Shown: positions 4,401-55,005 of the stretch, piece by piece | Numbering within the stretch: position 1 is the first letter of the stretch | Layout: each line of letters opens with the position of its first letter | Assembly: GCA_964477445.1 (NCBI GenBank) | Contig: CAYZED010000004.1 | Coordinates: 16,180-80,179, forward strand | From: an uncultured Clostridiaceae bacterium | GTDB lineage: Bacteria; Bacillota; Clostridia; Lutisporales; Lutisporaceae | Direction of reading: 5' to 3' | DNA length: 64,000 nucleotides | Notes under the pieces: model-generated | Databases searched by the model: none | What the model was told of the DNA's origin: nothing | Seen by the model: only the letters and a program-made list of their open reading frames with translations | Position numbers and translations under genes: made by a program

Positions 4401-5290
4401 GAATATTCAATTGCTTCCAAAAGTGAAATCACATAATCTTTTTCAATATTAAAGTTAGGCAAATAAGGCTTTAGCGTATCTTCCGAATTAATTATATCAA
4501 TAGCTATTACCATTTCATCAACATTTTGTCTGAGGATAGTGTTGACAATACTTAGAATAGCTTTCCCTTGCTTGGTTTTAGCAAAGTCATCAGTTTCAGT
4601 AACATTTAACTCTAAAACAGCGTTTTCCATCCATTCTAAAGGCCATGCCTCATTCATTATCTGATTATAAACTCTAATCAATAGCTTTTTTAATTCATCA
4701 TCACTTCTGTTCCCTGCATATCTATCTAGTAATCTCATAAAACTCTCAGCTAGTTCGCTTTTTTCATCAAGATCCGGACCTTGATTTTGCCCTTGATCTG
4801 GATTTATGACTTTCTTTTCATCATTGTCTTCTGAATAGTGTTCATCATAGAGTTCATCAAAATACTCTTCTGCAGTTTCTTCTAATAGCATCTCAATTTC
4901 TATACTATCCGCTATTCTAAAAGATGGATCAATATCAATCATGTGAAAATTATCTCTTATGACTTGTAAGCAAAATGAGTGAATCGTCATAATCCAACTA
5001 TTATCAAGGAGAGCTAACTGACGTTTAATTCTTCCCGGAAAGCAACCTTCTTTTTCGAGCTTTCTAAGTTTTATTCCAAGACGCTCTCTCATTTCTGCTG
5101 CTGCCGCATTAGAAAACGTTACAATGAGCATTCTATCAATATCAATAGGGTTTTCTTCGTCAAATATTCTTCCGATTATTCTATCCACAAGTACTGATGT
5201 TTTCCCCGACCCAGCAGCCGCTGATATTAAAAGGCTTGCGTTACGTGAGCCAATTGCTGATTTTTGTTCGTTAGTTAAACTAAAACTCAC
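1415..5290 (-). CDS. addA: ATP-dependent helicase/nuclease subunit A (AddA)
   Basis: 1291 aa. UvrD-type Walker A AAAGSGKT, motifs TIHSF and VDEYQDSN, C-terminal PD-(D/E)xK nuclease LLDYKTD. Directly downstream of addB. Confidence 0.93.
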   Translation of the reverse strand: MSFSLTNEQKSAIGSRNASLLISAAAGSGKTSVLVDRIIGRIFDEENPIDIDRMLIVTFSNAAAAEMRERLGIKLRKLEKEGCFPGRIKRQLALLDNSWIMTIHSFCLQVIRDNFHMIDIDPSFRIADSIEIEMLLEETAEEYFDELYDEHYSEDNDEKKVINPDQGQNQGPDLDEKSELAESFMRLLDRYAGNRSDDELKKLLIRVYNQIMNEAWPLEWMENAVLELNVTETDDFAKTKQGKAILSIVNTILRQNVDEMVIAIDIINSEDTLKPYLPNFNIEKDYVISLLEAIEYSKFDDIRDLIKDISFDRLKPVKNAPSDLKERVVEIRNLYKKELKSISENFFYASSEELFSEMNEVAKHSCDIVELTKVFYKKFTNKKKNLNVIDYSDMEHMALTIFYDSSKNLAAEKYRNQFEEIYVDEYQDSNFVQEEVILSVSRVRRIKPEQNIFMVGDLKQSIYAFRKADPSLFKGKMKSFSKDESAPERLIVLNKNFRSRIEVVEGINSIMNAIMSEKIGDIDYSGDEVLKFGANYYPLFPKEYSKIKSTKSFVKKEPGVEIHFIESEKPESEESEIGNEYKINKSNGIEEKNDITNEESEYIAKIITELINEGYPVWDNKSNSYRPAKYSDIAVLMRSPRGFNKRLEESFIKKDIPFYMEVDGGYFESLEISLVFSLLKILDNPLQDIPILAVLRSFIFGFTDSELVLLRSRDTITFKQKITKMNFYELVVLESLNEDSLLAEKCLKFTERIDKWRGESKYLSSDKLLWWLYEETNLYNFATVLPKGKQRQANLRLMYEKAALYEKTSYKGLFNFVKYLEKQIDKEIGSDKAKLSGHGQNIVSVMSVHKSKGLEYPIVIFANTSKRFNRRDTLANLLIHGKLGFGADIFRIEENYKYSSIVKESIKYEIKRESLSEEMRIMYVALTRAKEKLIILGSGKKINDKIAKSTTTTLIGKISEYACLNSNSFFDWLLLYVANNNANYKIIEKVESALSEEKNDRDEQINQNDSHEEANVIANNEISYAYRENNENIENENEKEKGNISTYELLKTEVDRRLDFSYPEIGETIRPLKISVTALKKKKNDSSVLEFENYKDSLEIDKSINPILKFEQRPTFLSSERRLNSAEKGTLMHFVMQMLDFNSDPENVITFINSLVSREMIKESDLKEINIDWIQNFLRSDVCKRIRNSQTVLREAPFKIMIPAKEAGYPDSPKNAETLLQGIIDCMFFEKGKWILLDYKTDYYEKGAVEKIANSYRVQLEWYKRAVEKVTKERVDSKCLYFFRHSDEIWV

Positions 5291-8200
5291 TTATTCCACC
5301 GTCCCTTTCTCTTTTGGGATTTCTAACATATTCTCAAGCGCTTCTCCTTGAGAAATGGTTTTTAGATAATTATATTCATTTCCCATAATTGATGTGTCAA
5401 ATTTACATATTGATAAATATCCACAATTTGTGCATGCAATATCCTTATCTGCTAATATAGGTTTAGCAGAAATTTCTCCTCGCTTTATTGATTCAACCTC
5501 GCTAATTAGTTTTTCTCTTACAAATTCGCACACCCTATTAAAATCATTTAGTGCTAATGTCCCCTTAACGTCAGTGATATCCATACTTGATTCAGTTTTG
5601 TTTTCAAAATTCTCATCTAGCGCCGATAGAATATCCATATCATCTAAAGCTACTCCAGACATTTTAAGTTTCTTTGTAATTTCTTTTTCAACTTCCTCGA
5701 ATTCTGTAATTTTCCCTAAATTCAAAAGTGGTTCATCTAGTCTAAAATAAAGAGCTGCTCCTGGCTTTATTTCGTCGTTAATTTTTATGCAATCCATATA
5801 TCCAAAAAGTTGCAATTCTGTCCCATAATATACATCTGAGAACTTCATCTCTTTTCTTCCCGTTTTATAATCTACAATCCTCGCATACTTAAATCCATCT
5901 TTTTCATAAATATCAAGCCTGTCAATTCTTCCTCTTATTTTTAGGTGAGTCCCATCCGAAAGTTTCATTGTGGCCTCGCCGAGCTTTGTCCCTGTTCCAA
6001 AATCTAATTCGTTCCCAATATTCTTGAATTTACTGCTCTTAAAATGTTTGTTTATTAACTTTGATGCTCTTTTAGCTACCTTTTTTATTCTTCCAGCTAA
6101 ATACTTATATTTCGATTTTGCGGCTAATATTCCTTCTTCCGAAATTTTATCGCAAATCTTTTCTGTTATTTTAGTTACCTCTTCATCTGATAACTCGCCA
6201 GGTTTTTTGCCCATTTTTATTATTTCGCTCATTGTTACATAAATAATTTCATGCAAAATATTCCCTACGTTTATCATATCTAGTTTAAATACTTCTCTAT
6301 CTTTAGCGCTGAGTGCTGAACTTATAAACCAAGAAAAAGGGCACTTATTATAAGATTCCAATCTGCTAATTGAAGTCAAAAAATCTCCCCCAGACATCAA
6401 TTTCAATGCATCCCCTGAAATACCTAACGAGTTAGTTTTATATTCTGATGCCTCTTCAAGTTCATATAAAACATCCCTATATTTTTCAGACGAGTTAAAC
6501 CACTCTTTAGATAACATAAGTTCAGTGCTAACTACTTTGTCTTTAATTCTAGCGGATATCTTTGATAAGGTAGCTTGTGGAGAAGATATTTCATCAATGT
6601 TTTTTTCGCGCTCATACACTCCACTGGTAAATAATACTTCCGTATTCTCCAATTTCAATTCATTAACTAACTTAGCCGGCCTTTTTCCACTACCATTCAA
6701 ATCTCCAAGCGAATAACTAACAAAAATATTTTCAGATGGCGCATTTATACATTGATAAATGAGAAATTCTCTCTCAAAAGTTCCCGATTTCGAATCGGGT
6801 GCGAGTCTGAAACCTATCTTTTCTAGGAATTCTCTTTCCCTATCGTTTATAAGTCCTGAATCACTAATCGGAGTAGGAAAAACGCCTTCATTTGTACCTA
6901 TGATGAAAAGTGATTTAATTTTGTGATGTCTCGATCTATCTAAATCTCCAACAATTACTTGATCTACTGTGCTAGGTGCCATTCCTGGTGACATCTGCTC
7001 TAAGCCTAGCATTAACAGTTCTCCAAAAAGTTCAAATGAAATTAAATCATCGCCAGATATTAAAACCATTTCATTTACAATCTCTGTGAATGAAACCCAA
7101 ATTTTTTCCTGTAAGGTAGCTAATGAGACTTCTCCCTTCAGATTTAACAGACTAGCTTCTTCCGCCATTTTTTCAGATAGTTTAATCTCATCAACAAAAT
7201 CAAAAAAAACGCTTCCCAAGTCATTACATTTTTTCTCTCCCTTTGAGTACTCGAAAAGTTTTTTTAGTGGCGAAATAACCAATTCTCTAATTCTATTCAT
7301 TTCAGTTATCTCATCTAGGTTCACCTTTTTATTGTAAGATGTTCTTTCTAACCCTTTTTCCCAATATTTATCTTCCGAAAAATAATACCCTGTTAGTCCA
7401 AATTTCAGACAAAAATTCTCAAAAGCATCTAATTCATCGATAGTAATGTCATAATTTTCTGATTCACCTGCTATAAAACCTGATTTTAAATACTTAAAAA
7501 CGCTGTCATAAGACCATTTGCTTTCATATATCTTAAATAAACTCGAAATAATCGAAAGAATAGGGTGTGCCACAATTTTCTTTTTCAAATCGACAAATAC
7601 AGGTATTTCATAAAGCTTAAAAACATTCTCTAAGAATCTAGAGTATGTTTCTAAATCCCCTGTAACTACTGCAATCTCGTTAAATTTATGACTCTCATCT
7701 CTTACTAAGGTGATAATTTTTCTAGCCAACCAATCTAATTCATCCCAAACTTCTCTCGCTTCATAAATTTCTGTTTTTTTCGAGACAGATTTGCTTATTC
7801 CGTCCACTTTTAATATCTCAATTTTTTTTCCATTCATTTCTGAAATATTTTCTAAACGGCAAAACGTTTTTTTCGCTGCAACAAAGGTATCTTCTGGCAA
7901 TATATTGTCGAAATCACATACAAAATCTGTACATAGCGTTACTGTAACATTACACCCCACATTTTCCATCGATTCAATTACTTTAAGTTCTTGAGGCGTA
8001 AAATCTTTGAATCCATCAATCCAGAAAGATGGTTTATCTGAATCTGTATTATTTTCAAATGCTTTAATATAATCGGCTAATCTATTCAAATTATCATCAT
8101 CATCAGTAATTTCAGAAGTGATATACTTATCATATTCTTGAAAAAGTTTGGCTAATTCTAGAGTTCTTTCCTCTATCAAGCCCTCTGCAAAACCCACAGT

Positions 8201-8635
8201 CAGCTCATTTATAAAAGTCTCCACTTTAATATCGTATCGTTTAAACTCTCTAAACGTTTTTTCAACAGAAGATATAAACCCTCTTTTTTCGGAAGCGCCC
8301 TTTAATATGTTAAGTTTTTCAACATTTTTTCTCAAAATTTTGTCGATAATTAATACTCTTCCAACTTCGCTAATAGCCTCTTTGTATCTTCCATTTTTTG
8401 ATTCTCTCAGGCGCTCATAGTACCACTGAAAACTAAACACTTCTACTCCATTGAGCCCTAGTGCGCCAAAATACTCTATCGCTGTCAATTCTGATGACAA
8501 CGAGATTTGATCTGGAACAATATATATCAGACTTTTTGTTGTTTCCCCATACTCATGAAGCTTTAAATTGCCATCTATTTCCTCGAAACACAAGTTTGTT
8601 TTTCCGGTTCCTGCTGTACCTATTATAACTCTCAT
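5291..8635 (-). CDS. addB: ATP-dependent helicase/nuclease subunit B (AddB)
   Basis: 1114 aa. Walker A GTAGTGKT, RecB-like nuclease IVDYKTG, and the Cys set (YNKCPF ... CTNCGYLSIC) typical of the AddB Fe-S nuclease domain. Abuts addA with no gap. Confidence 0.92.
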   Translation of the reverse strand: MRVIIGTAGTGKTNLCFEEIDGNLKLHEYGETTKSLIYIVPDQISLSSELTAIEYFGALGLNGVEVFSFQWYYERLRESKNGRYKEAISEVGRVLIIDKILRKNVEKLNILKGASEKRGFISSVEKTFREFKRYDIKVETFINELTVGFAEGLIEERTLELAKLFQEYDKYITSEITDDDDNLNRLADYIKAFENNTDSDKPSFWIDGFKDFTPQELKVIESMENVGCNVTVTLCTDFVCDFDNILPEDTFVAAKKTFCRLENISEMNGKKIEILKVDGISKSVSKKTEIYEAREVWDELDWLARKIITLVRDESHKFNEIAVVTGDLETYSRFLENVFKLYEIPVFVDLKKKIVAHPILSIISSLFKIYESKWSYDSVFKYLKSGFIAGESENYDITIDELDAFENFCLKFGLTGYYFSEDKYWEKGLERTSYNKKVNLDEITEMNRIRELVISPLKKLFEYSKGEKKCNDLGSVFFDFVDEIKLSEKMAEEASLLNLKGEVSLATLQEKIWVSFTEIVNEMVLISGDDLISFELFGELLMLGLEQMSPGMAPSTVDQVIVGDLDRSRHHKIKSLFIIGTNEGVFPTPISDSGLINDREREFLEKIGFRLAPDSKSGTFEREFLIYQCINAPSENIFVSYSLGDLNGSGKRPAKLVNELKLENTEVLFTSGVYEREKNIDEISSPQATLSKISARIKDKVVSTELMLSKEWFNSSEKYRDVLYELEEASEYKTNSLGISGDALKLMSGGDFLTSISRLESYNKCPFSWFISSALSAKDREVFKLDMINVGNILHEIIYVTMSEIIKMGKKPGELSDEEVTKITEKICDKISEEGILAAKSKYKYLAGRIKKVAKRASKLINKHFKSSKFKNIGNELDFGTGTKLGEATMKLSDGTHLKIRGRIDRLDIYEKDGFKYARIVDYKTGRKEMKFSDVYYGTELQLFGYMDCIKINDEIKPGAALYFRLDEPLLNLGKITEFEEVEKEITKKLKMSGVALDDMDILSALDENFENKTESSMDITDVKGTLALNDFNRVCEFVREKLISEVESIKRGEISAKPILADKDIACTNCGYLSICKFDTSIMGNEYNYLKTISQGEALENMLEIPKEKGTVE

Positions 8636-44618: not shown

Positions 44619-45599
44619 CTAGAACCACTTGTTTTTCTTTATGAATAGCATTACACCTATTATCGAAGTCGGTATAAATATCATCCCAAAAACTATCCAA
44701 AAGGCTTGCGGATAAGTATGCATCGGAATGCCCTGTACATTCATAGAAAAAAGGCCACTTACCAATATCATAGGCAAAATTGTTACCTGTATAATTGTAA
44801 ATGTTCTCATCAATCCATTCATTGTGTGGTTTGTAAGAGAAGTAAAAGTATTATCAGCTGATTCAATGACTTCTTTGTAATTCTCGAGCATATCCCAAAT
44901 CTTTTCTATTCTATCTGTTATATCATCAAAATATATATCCATATCTTCAGGCAAATATTTTTTTATTATACGTTCAAGCATTAATATAACTGGCCTCAGC
45001 GGCTTAATTACGCTGCGATAATTAATAATCTGCATTTTCGCTCGAGAAATCGTTTCAAGCATTTTTTTTGATCTGTCCGAGAAAACTTGCTTATTTATGT
45101 CATTAACTATATAGCCGATTTTGTCAATAATTGGGAAGCAATAGTCAAACAATGATTTAGTGATTTCATAAAGTAGCAGAGCCGATCCATTTTCCATGTA
45201 TTCTTTTCTTGCTTCTTCATCTGTATAGCAAAGTTTTGCAAGTTCAGTGATTGGCTTAAGTTCGCCCTCATGGAGAGTAACAAGATAGTCTGGCCCAATA
45301 AATATATCTATTTCTTCCGTATCTAATCTCACAAGTTCTTTTCTGTACCGAGGTAAGTGTAGGACGATAAAGCTATAATCTTCATAAGAATCGACTTTGG
45401 ATCTCTGATGTTCTGTCATACAGTCTTCCAGAAGTAGATCATGAAAATCATACATGTCCTTCAACATCTTGATTTCTTTATTTGTTGGCTTAATAATGTC
45501 AATCCACTTCAGTCCATTAAATTCAATAATCTTGACATCTCCGGTAATTTTTTTTATCTTACCGAAGTATTTCTTTTCATTTCCGAATGGCAATACCAT
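44619..45599 (-). CDS. corA: CorA-family divalent-cation (Mg2+/Co2+) channel with SMN in place of the GMN signature
   Basis: 326 aa. Cytoplasmic funnel domain plus two C-terminal TM helices. The TM1 end reads GLFSMNVQGIP (codons TCT ATG AAT at 44747..44739). KKNKWF C-terminus. M-box riboswitch upstream. Confidence 0.85.
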   Translation of the reverse strand: MVLPFGNEKKYFGKIKKITGDVKIIEFNGLKWIDIIKPTNKEIKMLKDMYDFHDLLLEDCMTEHQRSKVDSYEDYSFIVLHLPRYRKELVRLDTEEIDIFIGPDYLVTLHEGELKPITELAKLCYTDEEARKEYMENGSALLLYEITKSLFDYCFPIIDKIGYIVNDINKQVFSDRSKKMLETISRAKMQIINYRSVIKPLRPVILMLERIIKKYLPEDMDIYFDDITDRIEKIWDMLENYKEVIESADNTFTSLTNHTMNGLMRTFTIIQVTILPMILVSGLFSMNVQGIPMHTYPQAFWIVFGMIFIPTSIIGVMLFIKKNKWF

Positions 45600-45802: not shown

Positions 45803-45990
45803 GTCACTCCGACAACAAAAAACCCGGTTATTTTGTCACTCTGACAATAAAAAACCCGGTTATCGTCACGTTGACAACAAAAAACCGGTTATTTTATTGT
45901 TCGTGAACAATAAAAAACCTGGTTATTTTTGTCGATATAAACGACAAAAAAACCTGGTTATTTTTGTCGATATAAACGACAAAAAAACCT
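45803..45990 (-). repeat. ~5.7 tandem 30-35 bp hairpin-forming repeats in the corA leader
   Basis: Units at 45803-45834, 45835-45864, 45865-45895, 45896-45930, 45931-45965 and 45966-~45990. Conserved core AAAAAACC(N)GGTTATTTT plus a variable palindromic core. The last two units are identical. Confidence 0.9.
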
Positions 45991-46018
45991 GCATCAAAAA
46001 CATGAACTTGATGAAGGT
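45981..46018 (-). terminator. M-box expression-platform intrinsic terminator
   Basis: Minus strand CCUUCAUCAA-loop-UUGAUGCAGG (9/10 paired) followed by U7, starting 16 nt after the aptamer P1 3' strand. Confidence 0.7.
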
Positions 46019-46033
46019 ATTATTACAATACTT

Positions 46034-46179
46034 TCTCGTTCAAGTTTTGACTCTGCAAGGCAATGAAGTTGCATTAGGTTAAACCTTCTTTGTTCGGTAA
46101 AACCTGCTGACCAGTTCAGAATGTTTCCATTCTTTTACGGCAGCAACCCGTATCCTTGTAGTAATCTCACCTACCGAGA
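46034..46179 (-). promoter_or_regulatory. M-box (ykoK-leader) Mg2+ riboswitch aptamer
   Basis: The minus strand reads UCUCGGUAGGUGAG..GGAUACGGGUUGCUGCCGUAAAAG..CUGGUCAGCAGG..AAGGUUUAACCUAAUGCAACU..GAGUCAAAACUUGAACGAGA. This is collinear with the B. subtilis mgtE M-box landmarks (GUUAGGUGAG, UACG, CUGCUGCC, GGUCAACAG, UAAUGCAGCU, GCUAAAGCUCUACGA). P1 is UCUCG/CGAGA. Confidence 0.85.
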
Positions 46180-46204
46180 TATTTTAAATTTTATTTCACT
46201 TCCC

Positions 46205-49178: not shown

Positions 49179-51236
49179 ATGAATAAAATCCGAAAAAAAA
49201 TCGCTATTATTACAGGCACAGAATCAACAAAAACGCACGTTTTGGAACAACTTTATCCTCTTCTCTCAGGCTTAGTAGATATTGAAAGCTACGCCACAGA
49301 TAGTAAAAATATGCCGATGCTAAATGTTGATTTAGCGATAATTACTTCACCATTAGTTAAAGACGAAGCCATACCGTTTATTAACAAAAATTGTACTGTT
49401 CTTTTTGCAAGAAGAGCATTAGATTTCTCTTCCCTAGAAAAATTATTTTCAATCCCTGAAAAATCTGAAGTTTTACTAGTAAACGATGAGAAAGAAACTG
49501 CATACGAAGTAATCGAGTTGCTCAAAGAATCCGGAATAGATCATTTTAACCTCACTCCATTTTACCCAGGCGCAATAATAGAAAAAAAGTTTGAAATTGC
49601 TATAACCCCTGGCGAGTCAGCATTCGCTCCAGAAGGTATATTTCAAACAATCGATATTGGCCCGAGACTAATTGATTTAACTACCGTCGTTGAGATTCTC
49701 CAAAAACTTGATTTAATGGACGAAAAGGCTCACTATGTTTCTGCGAAATACTTTGAAACCATTGTTCGACTAGGGAAACAACTATATCAATCAAACAAAG
49801 AATACACCCGTGCAAATGAAAATCTGAATAAAATTCTCAATAGGATTAATGATGGAATAATCGCCTTTACAAAAAATGGAAAAATCACAGTTTTTAATCA
49901 AAAAAGCGAAGAAATTTTTATGATTCCCTACAAATCCGCCATCGGCAAGAATATTAGCAAAGTTATAAAAGATCCAGAGTTAATTAATTACTTGGTTGAT
50001 AAATCCTCCGAATACGATCATTTGTACACTATTGGGGATATCAAATATGCTATTACTCGATTCTTCTCGGACAGACTAGATGCTTATGTCGTAACTATTA
50101 AAAGTTCTGAAGATATAGCTGTTCTCGAAACAAAAATGCGTAGAAATTTGATACAAAGAGGACATATTGCGAAATATAGTTTCAACGATATCATTTATAA
50201 ATCAGAAGCTATGAAGAACACCGTTGAAATAGCAAAAAAAATCGCTCGAACTGAATTATCAACTCTAATATATGGAGAAAGCGGAACGGGAAAGGAACTT
50301 TTTGCTAGTTCAATACATAATTTCTCTCATAGGGCTGGCGGGCCTTTTCTTGCAGTAAATTTCAGTGCATTGCCAGAATCTTTGGTTGAGAGTGAATTAT
50401 TCGGCTATGAAGATGGCGCCTTTACTGGAGCTAGAAAAGGTGGTCACATAGGGTTGTTTGAGCAAGCTAATGGCGGAACTATATTTTTAGATGAAATTGG
50501 CGATACCTCTCCAAAAATTCAAGCTCGACTTCTTAGAGTTCTGCAAGAAAAGGAGATTATGAAGGTCGGCGGTTCAAAAATAATTCCGGTAAATGTGAGG
50601 GTTATCGCTGCTACTAATAAAAATTTAGTTGAAATGTGTAAGGCCGGCTCCTTCCGCGAAGATCTTTATTACCGATTGAAAAAGCTTTATTTAGCTACTC
50701 CAACCCTCCGAAATAGAAAAAACGATATTCCAGAGTTGATAAAATACTTCCTTCAGTTAAATAATTCTTCTCAATATGATTTAAGTCAAAATGTTCTGAA
50801 TGCTTTAGCATCTTATGAATGGCCAGGAAATGTTCGAGAACTTGAAAACACTGTTGAATACATGCTAGCTGTTTGTGATGGATGTGAAATAAATATCGAT
50901 CACCTTCCTCAAGACATTTGTTGCTCAAAAGAAGCTTCAAATGAACCAAATTCGATATATATCGAATTGTGCAACAAAGGCAACATCGACGAATATTTGT
51001 TCATATTAAACGCTATTGAGGCAAGACAAAAAAGCGGGCTTTCTATTGGTCGAAAAACACTAAGTGACATTACTTCTGCATTTCATTACAAGTTATCAGA
51101 AGAACAAATCAGATCCCGAACCGATACTTTATTAGCGATGGATCTAATCTCTAAAAATCGCGGACGTGGCGGCATGAATATTACAAAAAAAGGCTCAAAT
51201 TTTTTGTTTTCATTGGTTACGTGTTCAACCAATTAA
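49179..51236 (+). CDS. sigma-54-dependent transcriptional activator (bEBP) with PAS sensor region and atypical winged-helix-like C-terminus
   Basis: 685 aa. AAA+ Walker A GESGTGKE, sigma-54 contact loop GAFTGA, Walker B IFLDEIG, PAS-like DGIIAFTKNGKITVFN. No receiver domain. Confidence 0.88.
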   Translation: MNKIRKKIAIITGTESTKTHVLEQLYPLLSGLVDIESYATDSKNMPMLNVDLAIITSPLVKDEAIPFINKNCTVLFARRALDFSSLEKLFSIPEKSEVLLVNDEKETAYEVIELLKESGIDHFNLTPFYPGAIIEKKFEIAITPGESAFAPEGIFQTIDIGPRLIDLTTVVEILQKLDLMDEKAHYVSAKYFETIVRLGKQLYQSNKEYTRANENLNKILNRINDGIIAFTKNGKITVFNQKSEEIFMIPYKSAIGKNISKVIKDPELINYLVDKSSEYDHLYTIGDIKYAITRFFSDRLDAYVVTIKSSEDIAVLETKMRRNLIQRGHIAKYSFNDIIYKSEAMKNTVEIAKKIARTELSTLIYGESGTGKELFASSIHNFSHRAGGPFLAVNFSALPESLVESELFGYEDGAFTGARKGGHIGLFEQANGGTIFLDEIGDTSPKIQARLLRVLQEKEIMKVGGSKIIPVNVRVIAATNKNLVEMCKAGSFREDLYYRLKKLYLATPTLRNRKNDIPELIKYFLQLNNSSQYDLSQNVLNALASYEWPGNVRELENTVEYMLAVCDGCEINIDHLPQDICCSKEASNEPNSIYIELCNKGNIDEYLFILNAIEARQKSGLSIGRKTLSDITSAFHYKLSEEQIRSRTDTLLAMDLISKNRGRGGMNITKKGSNFLFSLVTCSTN

Positions 51237-51389
51237 TCACCCATATGCACCCATAAAATGATGTGATATTAGTTGCAAAATTGATTTGGATTGTGCACAA
51301 TCTCAAAAAAGAGTCATTCACCAATTCAAGCGGTGGGTGACTCTTGAATTTGTGTTCTATTATTGATCAAAGCGGTCCGTATAGTCTTT

Positions 51390-51865
51390 CCTTATGGCGC
51401 TATCCAGTATTAATTTTTGTTCAAATTTATTTAAATATCTAATATAACAAAAATTCGTACATATTAATGTGACTCTATCGGTGCATTACATCGACTTTTA
51501 AAGCTACTATGGCAGCTTTTTTGAGAAAGAAACAATATAGTATACCTTACCTTATGACGCTATCTAGTACTAATTTTTGTTCAAATTTATTTAAATATCT
51601 AATATAACAAAAATTCGTACAGATTAATGTGACTCTATCATTGACTTTTAAAGCTACTATGGCAGCTTTAACGAGAAAGAAACAGTATACTTAAGCTTAC
51701 CTTATGGCGCTATCCAGTACTAATTTTTGTTCAAATTTATTTAAATATCTAATACAACAAAAATTCGTACAGATTAATGTGACTCTATCATTGACTTTTA
51801 AAGCTACTATGGCAGCTTTAACGTCAAAAGAAACAGTGTAATTAAGCTTGCCTTATGACGCTATT
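51390..51865 (+). repeat. 3 full + 1 partial tandem copies of a ~150-160 bp non-coding module
   Basis: Units begin at CCTTATG(G/A)CGCTAT at 51390, 51550, 51700 and 51851, giving periods of 160, 150 and 151 bp. Copy 1 carries a 13-bp insertion (GGTGCATTACATC). By eye, only scattered substitutions separate the copies. Confidence 0.92.
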
Positions 51866-51959
51866 CGCATTAATAGTGTTTCTATGTTCATGGATAGTCA
51901 GCTTCTCTCCTCGGCTCCGCCGAGTTCCAGCTGATAGAAACACTAAAATTAATGCGAAT
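51863..51959. repeat. 97-bp long inverted repeat (23-bp arms) with nested GC hairpin, abutting the sigma-54 promoter
   Basis: Arms ATTCGCATTAATAGTGTTTCTAT (51863-51885) and ATAGAAACACT-aaa-ATTAATGCGAAT (51934-51959): 23/23 complementary with a 3-nt bulge. Inner TCAGCT/AGCTGA and CTCGGC-tcc-GCCGAG. Confidence 0.9.
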
Positions 51960-51964
51960 GCTCT

Positions 51965-51980
51965 TGGCATGCTTCTTGCT
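51965..51980 (+). promoter_or_regulatory. sigma-54 (-24/-12) promoter TGGCAT-N5-TTGCT
   Basis: GG at 51966-7 and GC at 51978-9, with the canonical 12-nt G-to-G spacing. Lies 40 nt upstream of the yfcC-like ATG and downstream of a bEBP gene. Confidence 0.8.
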
Positions 51981-52019
51981 TAATATTAAGTTAATAAATA
52001 TTAAGGAGGGGTTAAACTT

Positions 52020-53741
52020 ATGTCGGAACAAATTAAAAAGAACCGCGAAATCAAAATGCCTCATACCTACGTTATCATTTTTGGTGTTATCCTATTCTGT
52101 TGGCTTCTGACGTTCTTACTACCACTCGGAAAATTTGATGTCCACAAAATTACTTACACAGATGCCAGTGGAAAAGAGAAAACAAAAACCGTTCTTATTA
52201 CTACTTCTTTCCGTTACCAGTATGCTCTTGACAATGCAAAGCTTAGTTCAGCGTTATCAACAATCGCTGCTGACGAAGCTAAACTTACAGGCGCGGGTCT
52301 AGACAAAACCGCTATTGAAGATTTACTAAAAACCGACCAAACTACTTGGACTAACTCAAGTCTAGAAGAAATCGGTCTTACTGAAACTGTCATATATGAT
52401 TTGTTTAAAGAAACTGTATATGACACCTCTAAAAAACTTAAACACAGCCCTGGAATTTGGGGAACTGATGATTTTTATGGCTTCGGTATTCTGAATTATG
52501 TTTTCGAAGGACTCGTTACTGGGGATAAATGGGGCTCAGCTGTCGGAATTGTAGCTTTTATTCTCGTAATTGGTGGTGCTTTCGGAATAATTATGAGAAC
52601 TGGTGCTATAGATGCTGGTATTTATAGCTTTATTGGAAAAATTAAAGGATATGAATCGCTTTCGATTCCTCTACTCTTTATTCTTTTCTCACTTGGAGGT
52701 GCTATCTTTGGGATGTCAGAAGAGACAATTCCTTTTGCAATGATAATTATTCCTTTTGTTATTGCGATTGGCTATGACTCGCTGACAGGTATTGCCGTTA
52801 CTTTCGTGGCAACTCAAGTGGGAAATGCTGCTTCTTGGATGAATCCTTTCGGTGTCGCAATTGCTCAAGGTATTGCAGGAGTTCCAGTTCTATCAGGGGC
52901 ACCTTTTAGAATGGTTATGTGGGTAGTATTCACTGGCGCTGCTGTTACTTATTTAATGTTTTATTGCAAAAAAATCAAGAAAAATCCAGAAGCTTCTCCG
53001 GTCTATAACACTGATAATTACTGGAGAACAATGCATCAATCAAAAGAAGGCGAAAAAATCCAACTTAAACTTGGTCATATATTAGTACTTCTCTCACTCC
53101 TTGCAGGTATTATATGGGTTGTTTGGGGCGTTACAGAAAAGGGCTATTATATCCCAGAAATCGCTTCACAATTCTTCACTATGGGTCTCGTAGCAGGTAT
53201 AATTGCTGTAATATTTAAAATTGGCGACATGACACTAAACGATATTGCTTCTTCCTTCTCAAAAGGTGCAGGCGATTTAGTTGGAGCAGCAGTTGTTGTT
53301 GGTATGGCAAAAGGAGTTTTGCTTGTTCTAGGCGGTTCAGATGCAAGTACTCCTACAGTTTTGAATACCATCCTTAATGCTACAGGAAACGCACTAAAAG
53401 GCTTACCATCAACTATTGTGGCAGTTTTAATGTACGCTTTCCAAAGCGTATTCAATTTCTTCGTTACATCGAACTCAGGACAAGCAGCCCTTACAATGCC
53501 TATTCTCGCACCATTATCTGATTTAGTTGGTGTAACAAGACAGGTAGCAGTTCTTGCTTATCAAATGGGTTCTGGTTTCGCAGATGCTATAGTTCCAACA
53601 TCCGCAAGTCTTATGGGTGTTCTTGGTGTAGCTAGAGTTGAATGGGGAACTTGGGCAAAATGGCAAATCAAAATGCAAGGATTCTTCTTTGTACTTGGTA
53701 CAATATTCATAGTAGTAGCTGTTCTAATTAATTTTAGTTAG
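52020..53741 (+). CDS. YfcC-family (DcuC/AbgT-like fold) anaerobic transporter
   Basis: 573 aa. ~12 TM helices with a soluble insert after TM1. MPHTYVIIFGVI opening and FGMSEETIPF motif are typical of YfcC family. SD AAGGAGGGG. Confidence 0.7.
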   Translation: MSEQIKKNREIKMPHTYVIIFGVILFCWLLTFLLPLGKFDVHKITYTDASGKEKTKTVLITTSFRYQYALDNAKLSSALSTIAADEAKLTGAGLDKTAIEDLLKTDQTTWTNSSLEEIGLTETVIYDLFKETVYDTSKKLKHSPGIWGTDDFYGFGILNYVFEGLVTGDKWGSAVGIVAFILVIGGAFGIIMRTGAIDAGIYSFIGKIKGYESLSIPLLFILFSLGGAIFGMSEETIPFAMIIIPFVIAIGYDSLTGIAVTFVATQVGNAASWMNPFGVAIAQGIAGVPVLSGAPFRMVMWVVFTGAAVTYLMFYCKKIKKNPEASPVYNTDNYWRTMHQSKEGEKIQLKLGHILVLLSLLAGIIWVVWGVTEKGYYIPEIASQFFTMGLVAGIIAVIFKIGDMTLNDIASSFSKGAGDLVGAAVVVGMAKGVLLVLGGSDASTPTVLNTILNATGNALKGLPSTIVAVLMYAFQSVFNFFVTSNSGQAALTMPILAPLSDLVGVTRQVAVLAYQMGSGFADAIVPTSASLMGVLGVARVEWGTWAKWQIKMQGFFFVLGTIFIVVAVLINFS

Positions 53742-53811
53742 TAGTAATAAATAGAATCATTTTCATAGTTCTTATACCTGTAATTTATAGTATACAAATA
53801 AGGAGAGTCAC

Positions 53812-55005
53812 ATGATGAAGTTGATTAAAAATGCAGAACTTTACGCTCCGGAATACCAAGGTAAAAAAGATATACTCATTGCTGGAGGTAAAATTATAGA
53901 AGTTTCTGACTGTATAGATATCGAAATAAAAAAAGGAGCTTCAATTGAATTAATCGATGCAACCGGTAAAATAGTTACGCCAGGATTCATTGACTCTCAT
54001 GTCCATATACTAGGTGGAGGCGGCGAAGGCGGCTTTAAGAGTCGCACTCCAGAAATCTCCCTCTCCGATATCACCAGTGCCGGAATTACTACGATAGTCG
54101 GCTGTTTAGGAACTGACGGAGTAACTCGAGATCCACTAAGTTTATTAGCAAAGGCACGATCCCTTGAAGAAGAAGGTGTTTCTACTTTTATTTATACTGG
54201 ATCTTATCGTTTGCCATTAAGGACCATTACTAAGGATCTTATGAATGACATTATTATTATTGACAAAGTAATTGGTGCCGGAGAAGTTGCGATTTCTGAC
54301 CACAGATCCTCGCAACCCACTTTAAACGAACTAAAAAGACTCGTAGCTGATGTCCGAGTCGCTGGAATGTTATCTGGAAAAGCTGGAATTGTTAATATCC
54401 ATCTTGGAGACAGTATAGAAATGCTAAATCCAATTATTCAGATTGTTAAAGAAACTGGCATTCCTGCTAAACAATTCATCCCGACTCATGTAAACAGAAA
54501 TAAAAAGCTTTTTACTCAGGGCCGCGAGTATGCGAAAAATGGTGGCTATATTGACTTTACTACCAGTTCTGACCCTTCCTTCTGGGAAGGAGAAAACGGC
54601 GAAACACGTGGCAGTATTGCACTGAAAATTTGTCTTGAAGAAGGAGTACCGATTCAAAACATAACTTTTTCTTCTGACGGACAGGGAAGTCTTCCATTAT
54701 TTAATGAAAAGAACGAACTGATTGGTCTATGTCTCGGTAGTGTTAAATCCCTCTATGATGAAGTAATTGATGCTGTGATAAATCACAATGTGCCTTTTGA
54801 GAATGCACTAATGACAATAACCATAAATCCAGCTACAGCATTGAAGCTTCATAAAAAAGGAAGAGTCTCTTCTGGTTGCGATGCAGATATTTGCATAATT
54901 AACAAAGAAACTCTAGTATTAGACACAGTTATCGCAAAAGGTCAAGTTATGGTAGAAGGCGGATTAATCAAAGTTTATGGGACTTTCGAAACACACAGAG
55001 CTTGA
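53812..55005 (+). CDS. iadA: isoaspartyl (beta-aspartyl) dipeptidase
   Basis: 397 aa, collinear with E. coli IadA: PGFIDSHVHILGGGGEGG, VGCLGTDG, AISDHRSS, IPTHVNRN, SSDGQGS, C-terminal GTFET. Confidence 0.88.
   Translation: MMKLIKNAELYAPEYQGKKDILIAGGKIIEVSDCIDIEIKKGASIELIDATGKIVTPGFIDSHVHILGGGGEGGFKSRTPEISLSDITSAGITTIVGCLGTDGVTRDPLSLLAKARSLEEEGVSTFIYTGSYRLPLRTITKDLMNDIIIIDKVIGAGEVAISDHRSSQPTLNELKRLVADVRVAGMLSGKAGIVNIHLGDSIEMLNPIIQIVKETGIPAKQFIPTHVNRNKKLFTQGREYAKNGGYIDFTTSSDPSFWEGENGETRGSIALKICLEEGVPIQNITFSSDGQGSLPLFNEKNELIGLCLGSVKSLYDEVIDAVINHNVPFENALMTITINPATALKLHKKGRVSSGCDADICIINKETLVLDTVIAKGQVMVEGGLIKVYGTFETHRA

Follow-up and report, generated by a model that had tools for sequence, protein, structure and literature searches.

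We found that the non-coding segment 51390-51864 of the window (the whole stretch of DNA analysed, 64 kb in length) is a tandem array of three full head-to-tail units of 160, 150 and 151 bp, followed by the first 14 bp of a fourth. The array lies between the gene of a sigma-54 enhancer-binding activator and the sigma-54 promoter of the dipeptide-utilisation operon downstream of it. Our best reading is that of an old minisatellite, whose copies are 89-95% identical and which consists, as a minisatellite does, of head-to-tail copies of a non-coding unit. We consider it probable, if by no means certain, that this minisatellite is lineage-specific, that it belongs to an unconstrained enhancer-promoter spacer and was seeded beside a long palindrome, and that the palindromes and TGGCAG hexamers inside the units are passengers. 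The features of the locus are as follows, with (a) and (b) denoting the two hairpin-forming elements of the unit:

49179-51236, plus strand: sigma-54 enhancer-binding activator gene, 685 aa, with an N-terminal sensor region, a PAS domain, an AAA+ sigma-54 interaction domain and, at about residues 620-685, a C-terminal DNA-binding domain
51212-51258, unstranded: candidate upstream activating sequence (UAS), with one forward half-site (TTGGTT) and three reverse ones (AACCAA, ACCCAT, ACCCAT) spaced by about 10-14 bp and straddling the activator stop codon
51309-51345, plus strand: terminator-like hairpin, an inverted repeat with a 13-bp stem and a U-rich tail (RNA fold -28.1 kcal/mol, z = -4.5)
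51390-51549, 160 bp: repeat unit 1, with a 10-nt extra segment GGTGCATTAC at about 51479-51488 and palindrome (b) shortened to AAAGCT/AGCTTT
51550-51699, 150 bp: repeat unit 2, with hairpin (a) at 51567-51620, palindrome (b) at 51648-51671 and TGGCAG at 51660
51700-51850, 151 bp: repeat unit 3, with hairpin (a) at 51717-51770, palindrome (b) at 51798-51821 and TGGCAG at 51810
51851-51864: partial fourth unit, CCTTATGACGCTAT, which at its 3' end shares a few bases with the long palindrome, at the outermost part of its left arm
51860-51961, unstranded: long promoter-proximal palindrome of about 100 bp, two inverted repeats with the arms ATTCGCATTAAT-AGTGTTTCTAT and ATAGAAACACT-AAA-ATTAATGCGAAT
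51965-51980, plus strand: sigma-54 promoter TGGCAT-GCTTC-TTGCT (TGGCATGCTTCTTGCT)
52020-55005, plus strand: target operon, comprising a YfcC-like (DcuC family) transporter gene (52020-53741) and an isoaspartyl dipeptidase gene (53812-55005)

An earlier note on this DNA had described tandem units of about 150 bp that begin at 51390, 51550, 51700 and, for the partial copy, 51851. The same starts were obtained with a direct-repeat search and blastn; unit 2 as query found unit 3 with E = 1e-63 and unit 1 with E = 3e-51. Tandem Repeats Finder called 51489-51864 with a period of 150, 2.5 copies, 91% matches and a score of 624. The alignment of the copies that the earlier note had suggested gave identities of 91.3% between units 1 and 2, 94.7% between units 2 and 3 and 89.3% between units 1 and 3, with a 10-nt indel in unit 1 and a 1-nt indel in unit 3. 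Since the copies differ by 5-11%, the amplification proposed there did take place, but it was not recent. The sequence directly 5' of unit 1 (51366-51389) bears a weak likeness to the 3' end of the unit, and the array therefore has a length of about 3.2 units.

The array was also found in a JGI metagenome contig of the same organism (L033), which was reached via a member of a 90% cluster and encodes an activator 99.9% identical to that of the window. Over 574 bp from the activator stop codon the two sequences are 100% identical, and the contig ends, at its position 7632, inside copy 3, as is typical of assemblies, which tend to break in repeats. The presence of the array in two separate assemblies speaks against an assembly error confined to either one. 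The contig end in copy 3 also illustrates that short-read assemblies fall apart at repeats of this sort, so that the number of copies stays hidden. Scans of genome representatives and metagenomes yielded no relative closer than 57-59% identity, and exact-protein look-ups with the activator and the transporter of the window gave no match. A dispersed repeat, which the earlier note had named as an outcome contrary to its proposal, is not what we found, as no further copy of the unit is present in the 64-kb window or in plasmid, phage and viral (IMG/VR) collections. A mobile-element origin was rejected on the same lack of unit matches in plasmids, phages and IMG/VR.

The product of 49179-51236, described earlier as the activator encoded immediately upstream, matches Pfam PF00158 at 5.5e-67 and also AAA_lid_14 and PAS, while its best NCBIfam match is PrdR-like and lies under the cutoff. 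The transporter matches Pfam DcuC at 1.4e-120 and NCBIfam NF008611 with 684 bits, and the isoaspartyl dipeptidase matches TIGR01975 with 532 bits, both NCBIfam scores being above cutoff. A ribosome-binding site, AAGGAGG, precedes the transporter gene at 52003-52009. We accepted as a sigma-54 promoter only a GG and a GC spaced 10 nt apart within TGGCAY-N5-TTGCW, and 51965-51980 alone has this arrangement. Together with T51964 it is an exact match to the Clostridiales consensus TTGGCATNNNNNTTGCT (PMC6615313). The promoter pattern occurs three times in the window against 0.36 expected, and the match at 51965 alone is intergenic; on both strands of the 784-bp intergenic region (51237-52019) it is also the sole GG-N10-GC, so that the consensus promoter of the earlier note stands.

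The pair of activator and transporter genes is common to the orthologous loci L030, L031, L034-L038, L042-L044, L046-L048 and L001; in L032, the contig stops just inside the gene after the activator. The dipeptidase gene comes next wherever the contig is long enough, with the exception of L042 and L048, where an M20 peptidase is found instead. We did not encounter this module of activator, YfcC and isoaspartyl dipeptidase in the regulons that a study of Clostridiales sigma-54 regulation gives in its text and supplement, and no mention in the supplement matched the transporter/dipeptidase pair (PMC6615313). When the full-text literature was searched for tandem repeats in sigma-54 upstream regions, the only papers retrieved were unrelated ones on yeast and fungi.

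A dyad or cluster of half-sites at the activator stop codon is the only upstream element that is conserved among the roughly 12 orthologous activator/transporter loci, whose intergenic regions are otherwise unalignable. The block WTGGKT..AACCA..CACCCATATGCAMCC is kept in all five of the closest sequences, representing four lineages (alignment A2: window, L030, L034, L031 and L032; activators 64-68% identical). More distant orthologues carry a dyad of WTGGKT-type half-sites centred 25-36 bp past the stop codon, with arms of 18-23 bp, a spacer of 7-12 bp and half-sites spaced by 10 bp; its consensus is about AATTGGTG-TTAATGGTT / AACCATTAA-CACCAATT, as exemplified by AATTGGTGCTTAATGGTT-N9-AACCATTAAGCACCAATT in L042. 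Altogether, a cis-element at the stop codon was seen in the window and in L001, L030-L032, L034-L038, L042, L046 and L048, the dyad of L038 having a different motif. Because the motif is conserved while the strength of the hairpin varies, we read it as an activator binding site and not merely as a terminator. The segment 51212-51258, about 710-750 bp upstream of the promoter, is thus a candidate for the true enhancer of this operon, to which the activator would be expected to bind. Between 51260 and 52020 there is not a single WTGGKT/AMCCAW half-site, hence none in the array, and no orthologous intergenic region contains a counterpart of the array or any similarity to it. The conservation upstream of orthologous target operons that is expected of a UAS is therefore absent from the array.

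The terminator-like hairpin at 51309-51345 is probably the end of the activator transcript. A simple terminator scan did not call it, perhaps because its loop is longer than the scan allows. Since the hairpin separates the candidate enhancer from the array, the latter is probably untranscribed spacer outside the activator mRNA. A perfect 14-bp palindrome, GATTGTGCACAATC, is located at 51289-51302 between the candidate enhancer and this hairpin and is a possible site of another regulator.

The main functional consequence of the array is, in our reading, a changed distance between the activator-site end of the region and the promoter. The -24 element is 729 bp away from the activator stop codon in the window, and 634 and 523 bp away in the two other array-bearing loci, L030 and L034, compared with 137-273 bp in ten orthologous loci that are free of arrays. 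With NtrC-type activators and DNA looping, activation is still possible at such enhancer-promoter distances, and at a separation of about 500 bp looping depends least on bending or phasing.

The 3' edge of the array points to how it may have arisen. The palindrome at 51860-51961, into which the fourth copy runs, has its centre about 55 bp upstream of the -24 element, includes an inner GC-rich mini-hairpin (CTCGGC/GCCGAG) and folds as DNA with -28.7 kcal/mol (z = -7.4; none of 200 shuffles was as good). L030 and L034, which form one species-level cluster, a sister lineage with activators 64% identical to that of the window, have a palindrome of the same architecture but different sequence at the same position, its centre about 57 bp upstream of the -24 element (8571-8655 in L030). 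Their long intergenic region holds a tandem array as well, made of a 28-bp unit, GGTTTCTAACCTTGCTGAGTTAATTGGC, that is unrelated to the unit of the window. It comprises 9.4 nearly identical copies in L030 (8314-8577) and 5.4 more diverged copies in L034 (about 4484-4636), and its last, partial copy makes up the outermost 13 nt of the palindrome's left arm. In both lineages, then, the 3' edge of the array runs into the outer left arm of a palindrome of about 100 bp with its centre 55-58 bp upstream of the -24 element. L030 has in addition a direct repeat, CCTGCTTCGCGGCGTGGTTTATG, in two copies 53 bp apart (8211-8233 and 8264-8286) upstream of the 28-bp array, and we take this as more evidence of a spacer that accumulates duplications.

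Palindromes near the promoter are common in the orthologous loci. Shorter ones adjoin or overlap the -24 element in L032 (3184-3229), L036 (5626-5674) and L037 (5694-5723), where no arrays are present; the hairpin of L032 includes the -24 TGGCAT itself, and the T-run at the -12 element follows the hairpin like a terminator tail. The palindromes adjacent to the -24 element of several orthologous promoters are strong, and their sequence is not conserved. Insulation against read-through, the binding of a second regulator and cruciform formation are possibilities for their role.

We propose that a piece of spacer of about 150 bp, between the site at 51212-51258 and the promoter at 51965, was tandemly duplicated twice. 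The duplications may have occurred by replication slippage or template switching, while the polymerase was held up at the base of the palindrome hairpin; an array edge at the palindrome foot in two lineages is the geometry that would be expected of such events at a hairpin-stalled fork. The palindromes and the TGGCAG of the unit would have been copied along with it as passengers. The array presumably persists because enhancer looping is insensitive to distance: looping would tolerate a long enhancer-promoter separation and, at about 500-700 bp, may even favour it. Some points can be raised against the minisatellite reading. Copies that have diverged by 5-11% have not been collapsed by recombination, and their number could have been kept by selection. 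Likewise, independent arrays are present at one orthologous position in two of about 12 lineages, and this could be due to a selective advantage of long spacers and not to a hot spot of mutation.

The main alternative, which we regard as rather unlikely, is that the arrays are a selected device for spacer length. They would set a looping distance of about 500-700 bp that requires neither a bending protein nor helical phasing, and changes in copy number would act as slow tuning or as a contingency switch for the dipeptide operon. Arrays of unrelated sequence at the same position in two lineages, the persistence of diverged copies, the copy numbers of 9.4 and 5.4 in two assemblies of one lineage and the range of 523-729 bp with arrays versus 137-273 bp otherwise all argue for it. 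However, short spacers serve the ten array-free orthologous loci well, and slippage should be rare among 150-bp units with an identity of 89-95%. For the array of the window no copy-number variant was seen, the sole other assembly (L033) ending in copy 3. In its widest form, the idea is that a long palindrome together with an expandable array is a recurrent, selected means of setting and re-setting the enhancer-promoter distance of sigma-54 operons in bacteria without a dedicated bending protein, which evolved independently in two lineages from unrelated sequence and tunes the isoaspartyl-dipeptide operon through copy changes. This extended claim we hold to be improbable.

A second array in an unrelated leader nearby also argues for a general mutational tendency and against a selected device. 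It is situated 6 kb from the main array in a minus-strand leader (45803-45991), between an M-box riboswitch (46028-46185; Rfam) and a CorA gene (44619-45599), and consists of about five units of 32-35 bp, in each of which a hairpin UUUUUGUCG...CGACAAAAA leads into a U-run. It was called by Tandem Repeats Finder, and its RNA fold has a z of -7.1. The units repeat a terminator-like module within the expression platform of the magnesium riboswitch, and their presence suggests that the genome has a general tendency to create or tolerate arrays in leaders.

The earlier note had put forward another explanation, in which each unit is an extra enhancer or pseudo-promoter whose palindromes bind and multimerise the activator, or whose TGGCAG binds and titrates the sigma-54 holoenzyme. 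The elements on which it was built are all present where they had been placed. Element (a), AATTTTTGTT-N24-AACAAAAATT, occurs in all three units, with arms that reach 15-17 nt if one or two mismatches are allowed; element (b), TTAAAGCT-N8-AGCTTTAA, occurs at 51648-51671 and 51798-51821 and in a shorter form in copy 1; and element (c), TGGCAG, is found at 51510, 51660 and 51810. The palindromes are real and identical in the copies. Moreover, the last 50 nt or so of the unit carry substitutions more densely than the first 100 nt or so, in which hairpin (a) and the greater part of palindrome (b) are located; this distribution is compatible with constraint on both elements. The distance from palindrome (b) of copy 3 to the promoter downstream is about 155 bp and falls inside the usual range, as UAS sites of Clostridiales are mostly found 100-250 bp upstream of the promoter and many of their sigma-54 operons have multiple UAS sites (PMC6615313).

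Nevertheless, we judge this explanation to be improbable. The units lack the half-site that is conserved at all close orthologous promoters, and the unit sequence is found in no orthologue, so that the proposed reiterated enhancer modules are not supported. The array unit of the sister lineage is a completely different 28 bp. Apart from one match to (a) with two mismatches at 45961, in the array of the M-box leader, the search, at the settings used, gave no further occurrence of palindrome (a) or (b) in the 64-kb window. The position of palindrome (b) of copy 3 at about 155 bp is no independent evidence, because it is a consequence of the 150-bp period, and the threefold occurrence of palindromes and TGGCAG does not represent three independent events, because it stems from one duplication history. 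As for the pseudo-promoters, the sequences at the TGGCAG elements are TGGCAG-CTTTT-TTGA and TGGCAG-CTTTA-ACGA/ACGT. The decayed -12 that had been noted beside them is thereby borne out, and it counts against promoter function: in no unit is the obligatory GC at -12 present at the correct spacing from the GG at -24, and no GG-N10-GC occurs in the units. TGGCAG itself is a common hexamer, with 25 occurrences in the window against 16.4 expected. The stretch in (a) that had been called IHF-like likewise found no support, since the IHF core consensus WATCAANNNNTTR has no match on either strand of 51237-52019. The motif TGT-N10-12-ACA, typical of PrdR-like activators, was not found in the intergenic region either.

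It is very improbable that the hairpin-rich units act structurally as RNA or DNA, whether as a small RNA or as insulators or terminators that keep transcription of the activator gene from running on into the tightly controlled sigma-54 operon. Although each unit has two hairpins, hairpin (b) of copy 1 is followed by TTTTTTG, and long hairpins beside the -24 element are common in orthologues (that of L032 overlapping the promoter ahead of a T-run), the fold of a single unit is only marginally better than that of shuffled sequences (z = -2.5, equalled by 3 of 200 shuffles). A U-tract is missing from copies 2 and 3, the terminator scan made no call in the units, Rfam gave no match, and a much stronger terminator-like hairpin already stands upstream at 51309-51345.

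Several further candidates were rejected. A MAFFT alignment hinted that the unit might be a diverged version of the promoter-proximal palindrome and promoter. The local alignment score of 19 compares with a shuffle mean of 16.8 +/- 2.4 and was reached by 99 of 500 shuffles, and beyond the 14 nt at 51851-51864 there is no significant homology between the unit and the promoter-proximal DNA. Intrinsic curvature was dismissed because AA/TT has no periodicity of 10-11 bp within the unit (p about 0.49); AA/TT peaks over the array as a whole can apparently be put down to harmonics of the 150-bp period (150/14 = 10.7 and 150/13 = 11.5). The array has no significant match to a known RNA family in Rfam, the best one being a microRNA model with E = 0.34. 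Its open reading frames are short (21-58 aa) and have no obvious ribosome-binding site, and with units of 160, 150 and 151 bp any reading frame is broken across the array. Inside the array, one sigma-70 promoter-like site was found against 4.9 expected, and no terminator.

Among known systems, the array is likely to be of the same kind as bacterial intergenic VNTRs, that is, an ordinary minisatellite in tolerant spacer DNA. Such VNTRs consist of head-to-tail non-coding units of tens to more than 100 bp with slightly diverged copies, and they differ in copy number between related strains, as was seen here for the 28-bp array of the sister lineage. The MIRU-VNTRs of Mycobacterium tuberculosis are bacterial intergenic minisatellites that form a dispersed family at tens of loci. 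In contrast, the 150-bp unit of the window was found at one locus only (64-kb window and phage, plasmid and viral collections), with the polymorphism known here coming from the 28-bp array alone.

Repeats which alter the spacing between a regulator and its promoter include the TAAA tract of nadA in Neisseria meningitidis and the 7-bp repeats of hmw in Haemophilus influenzae. Their units of 4-7 bp are identical, and high-frequency slippage leads to phase variation. Our array resembles them in being placed between an upstream regulatory site and the core promoter, with copy number altering the geometry. Unlike those tracts, it is made of 150-bp units that are 89-95% identical, and changes in its copy number would therefore be rare.

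In E. coli model systems, slippage or template switching during replication leads to duplication between short direct repeats, and palindromes or hairpins stimulate this process. The coincidence of the array 3' edge with the outer base of a hairpin-forming palindrome, in two independent lineages, is similar to this, with the difference that here the mechanism is read from geometry only. Repeated upstream elements, a TTGGCAT-N5-TTGCT promoter and an adjacent activator gene are shared with sigma-54 systems that have multiple UAS, such as NtrC at glnAp2 and PrdR at prd, the latter having multiple PrdR sites upstream in C. difficile (PMC6615313). Genuine multiple UAS repeat a short recognition motif, whereas the repeats of the window are 150 bp of otherwise unconserved DNA that lacks the motif of the orthologues.

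Overall, our data make the cis-regulatory layout of this activator family readable as a dyad of WTGGKT half-sites at the stop codon, a spacer and the promoter TTGGCAT-N5-TTGCT, which is a testable prediction. They also call for caution, in that palindromes and -24-like hexamers within a repeat are copied passengers and not independent evidence of function. If arrays beside long palindromes are indeed selected, they would constitute a natural experiment on the reach and flexibility of the sigma-54 enhancer in Clostridia.
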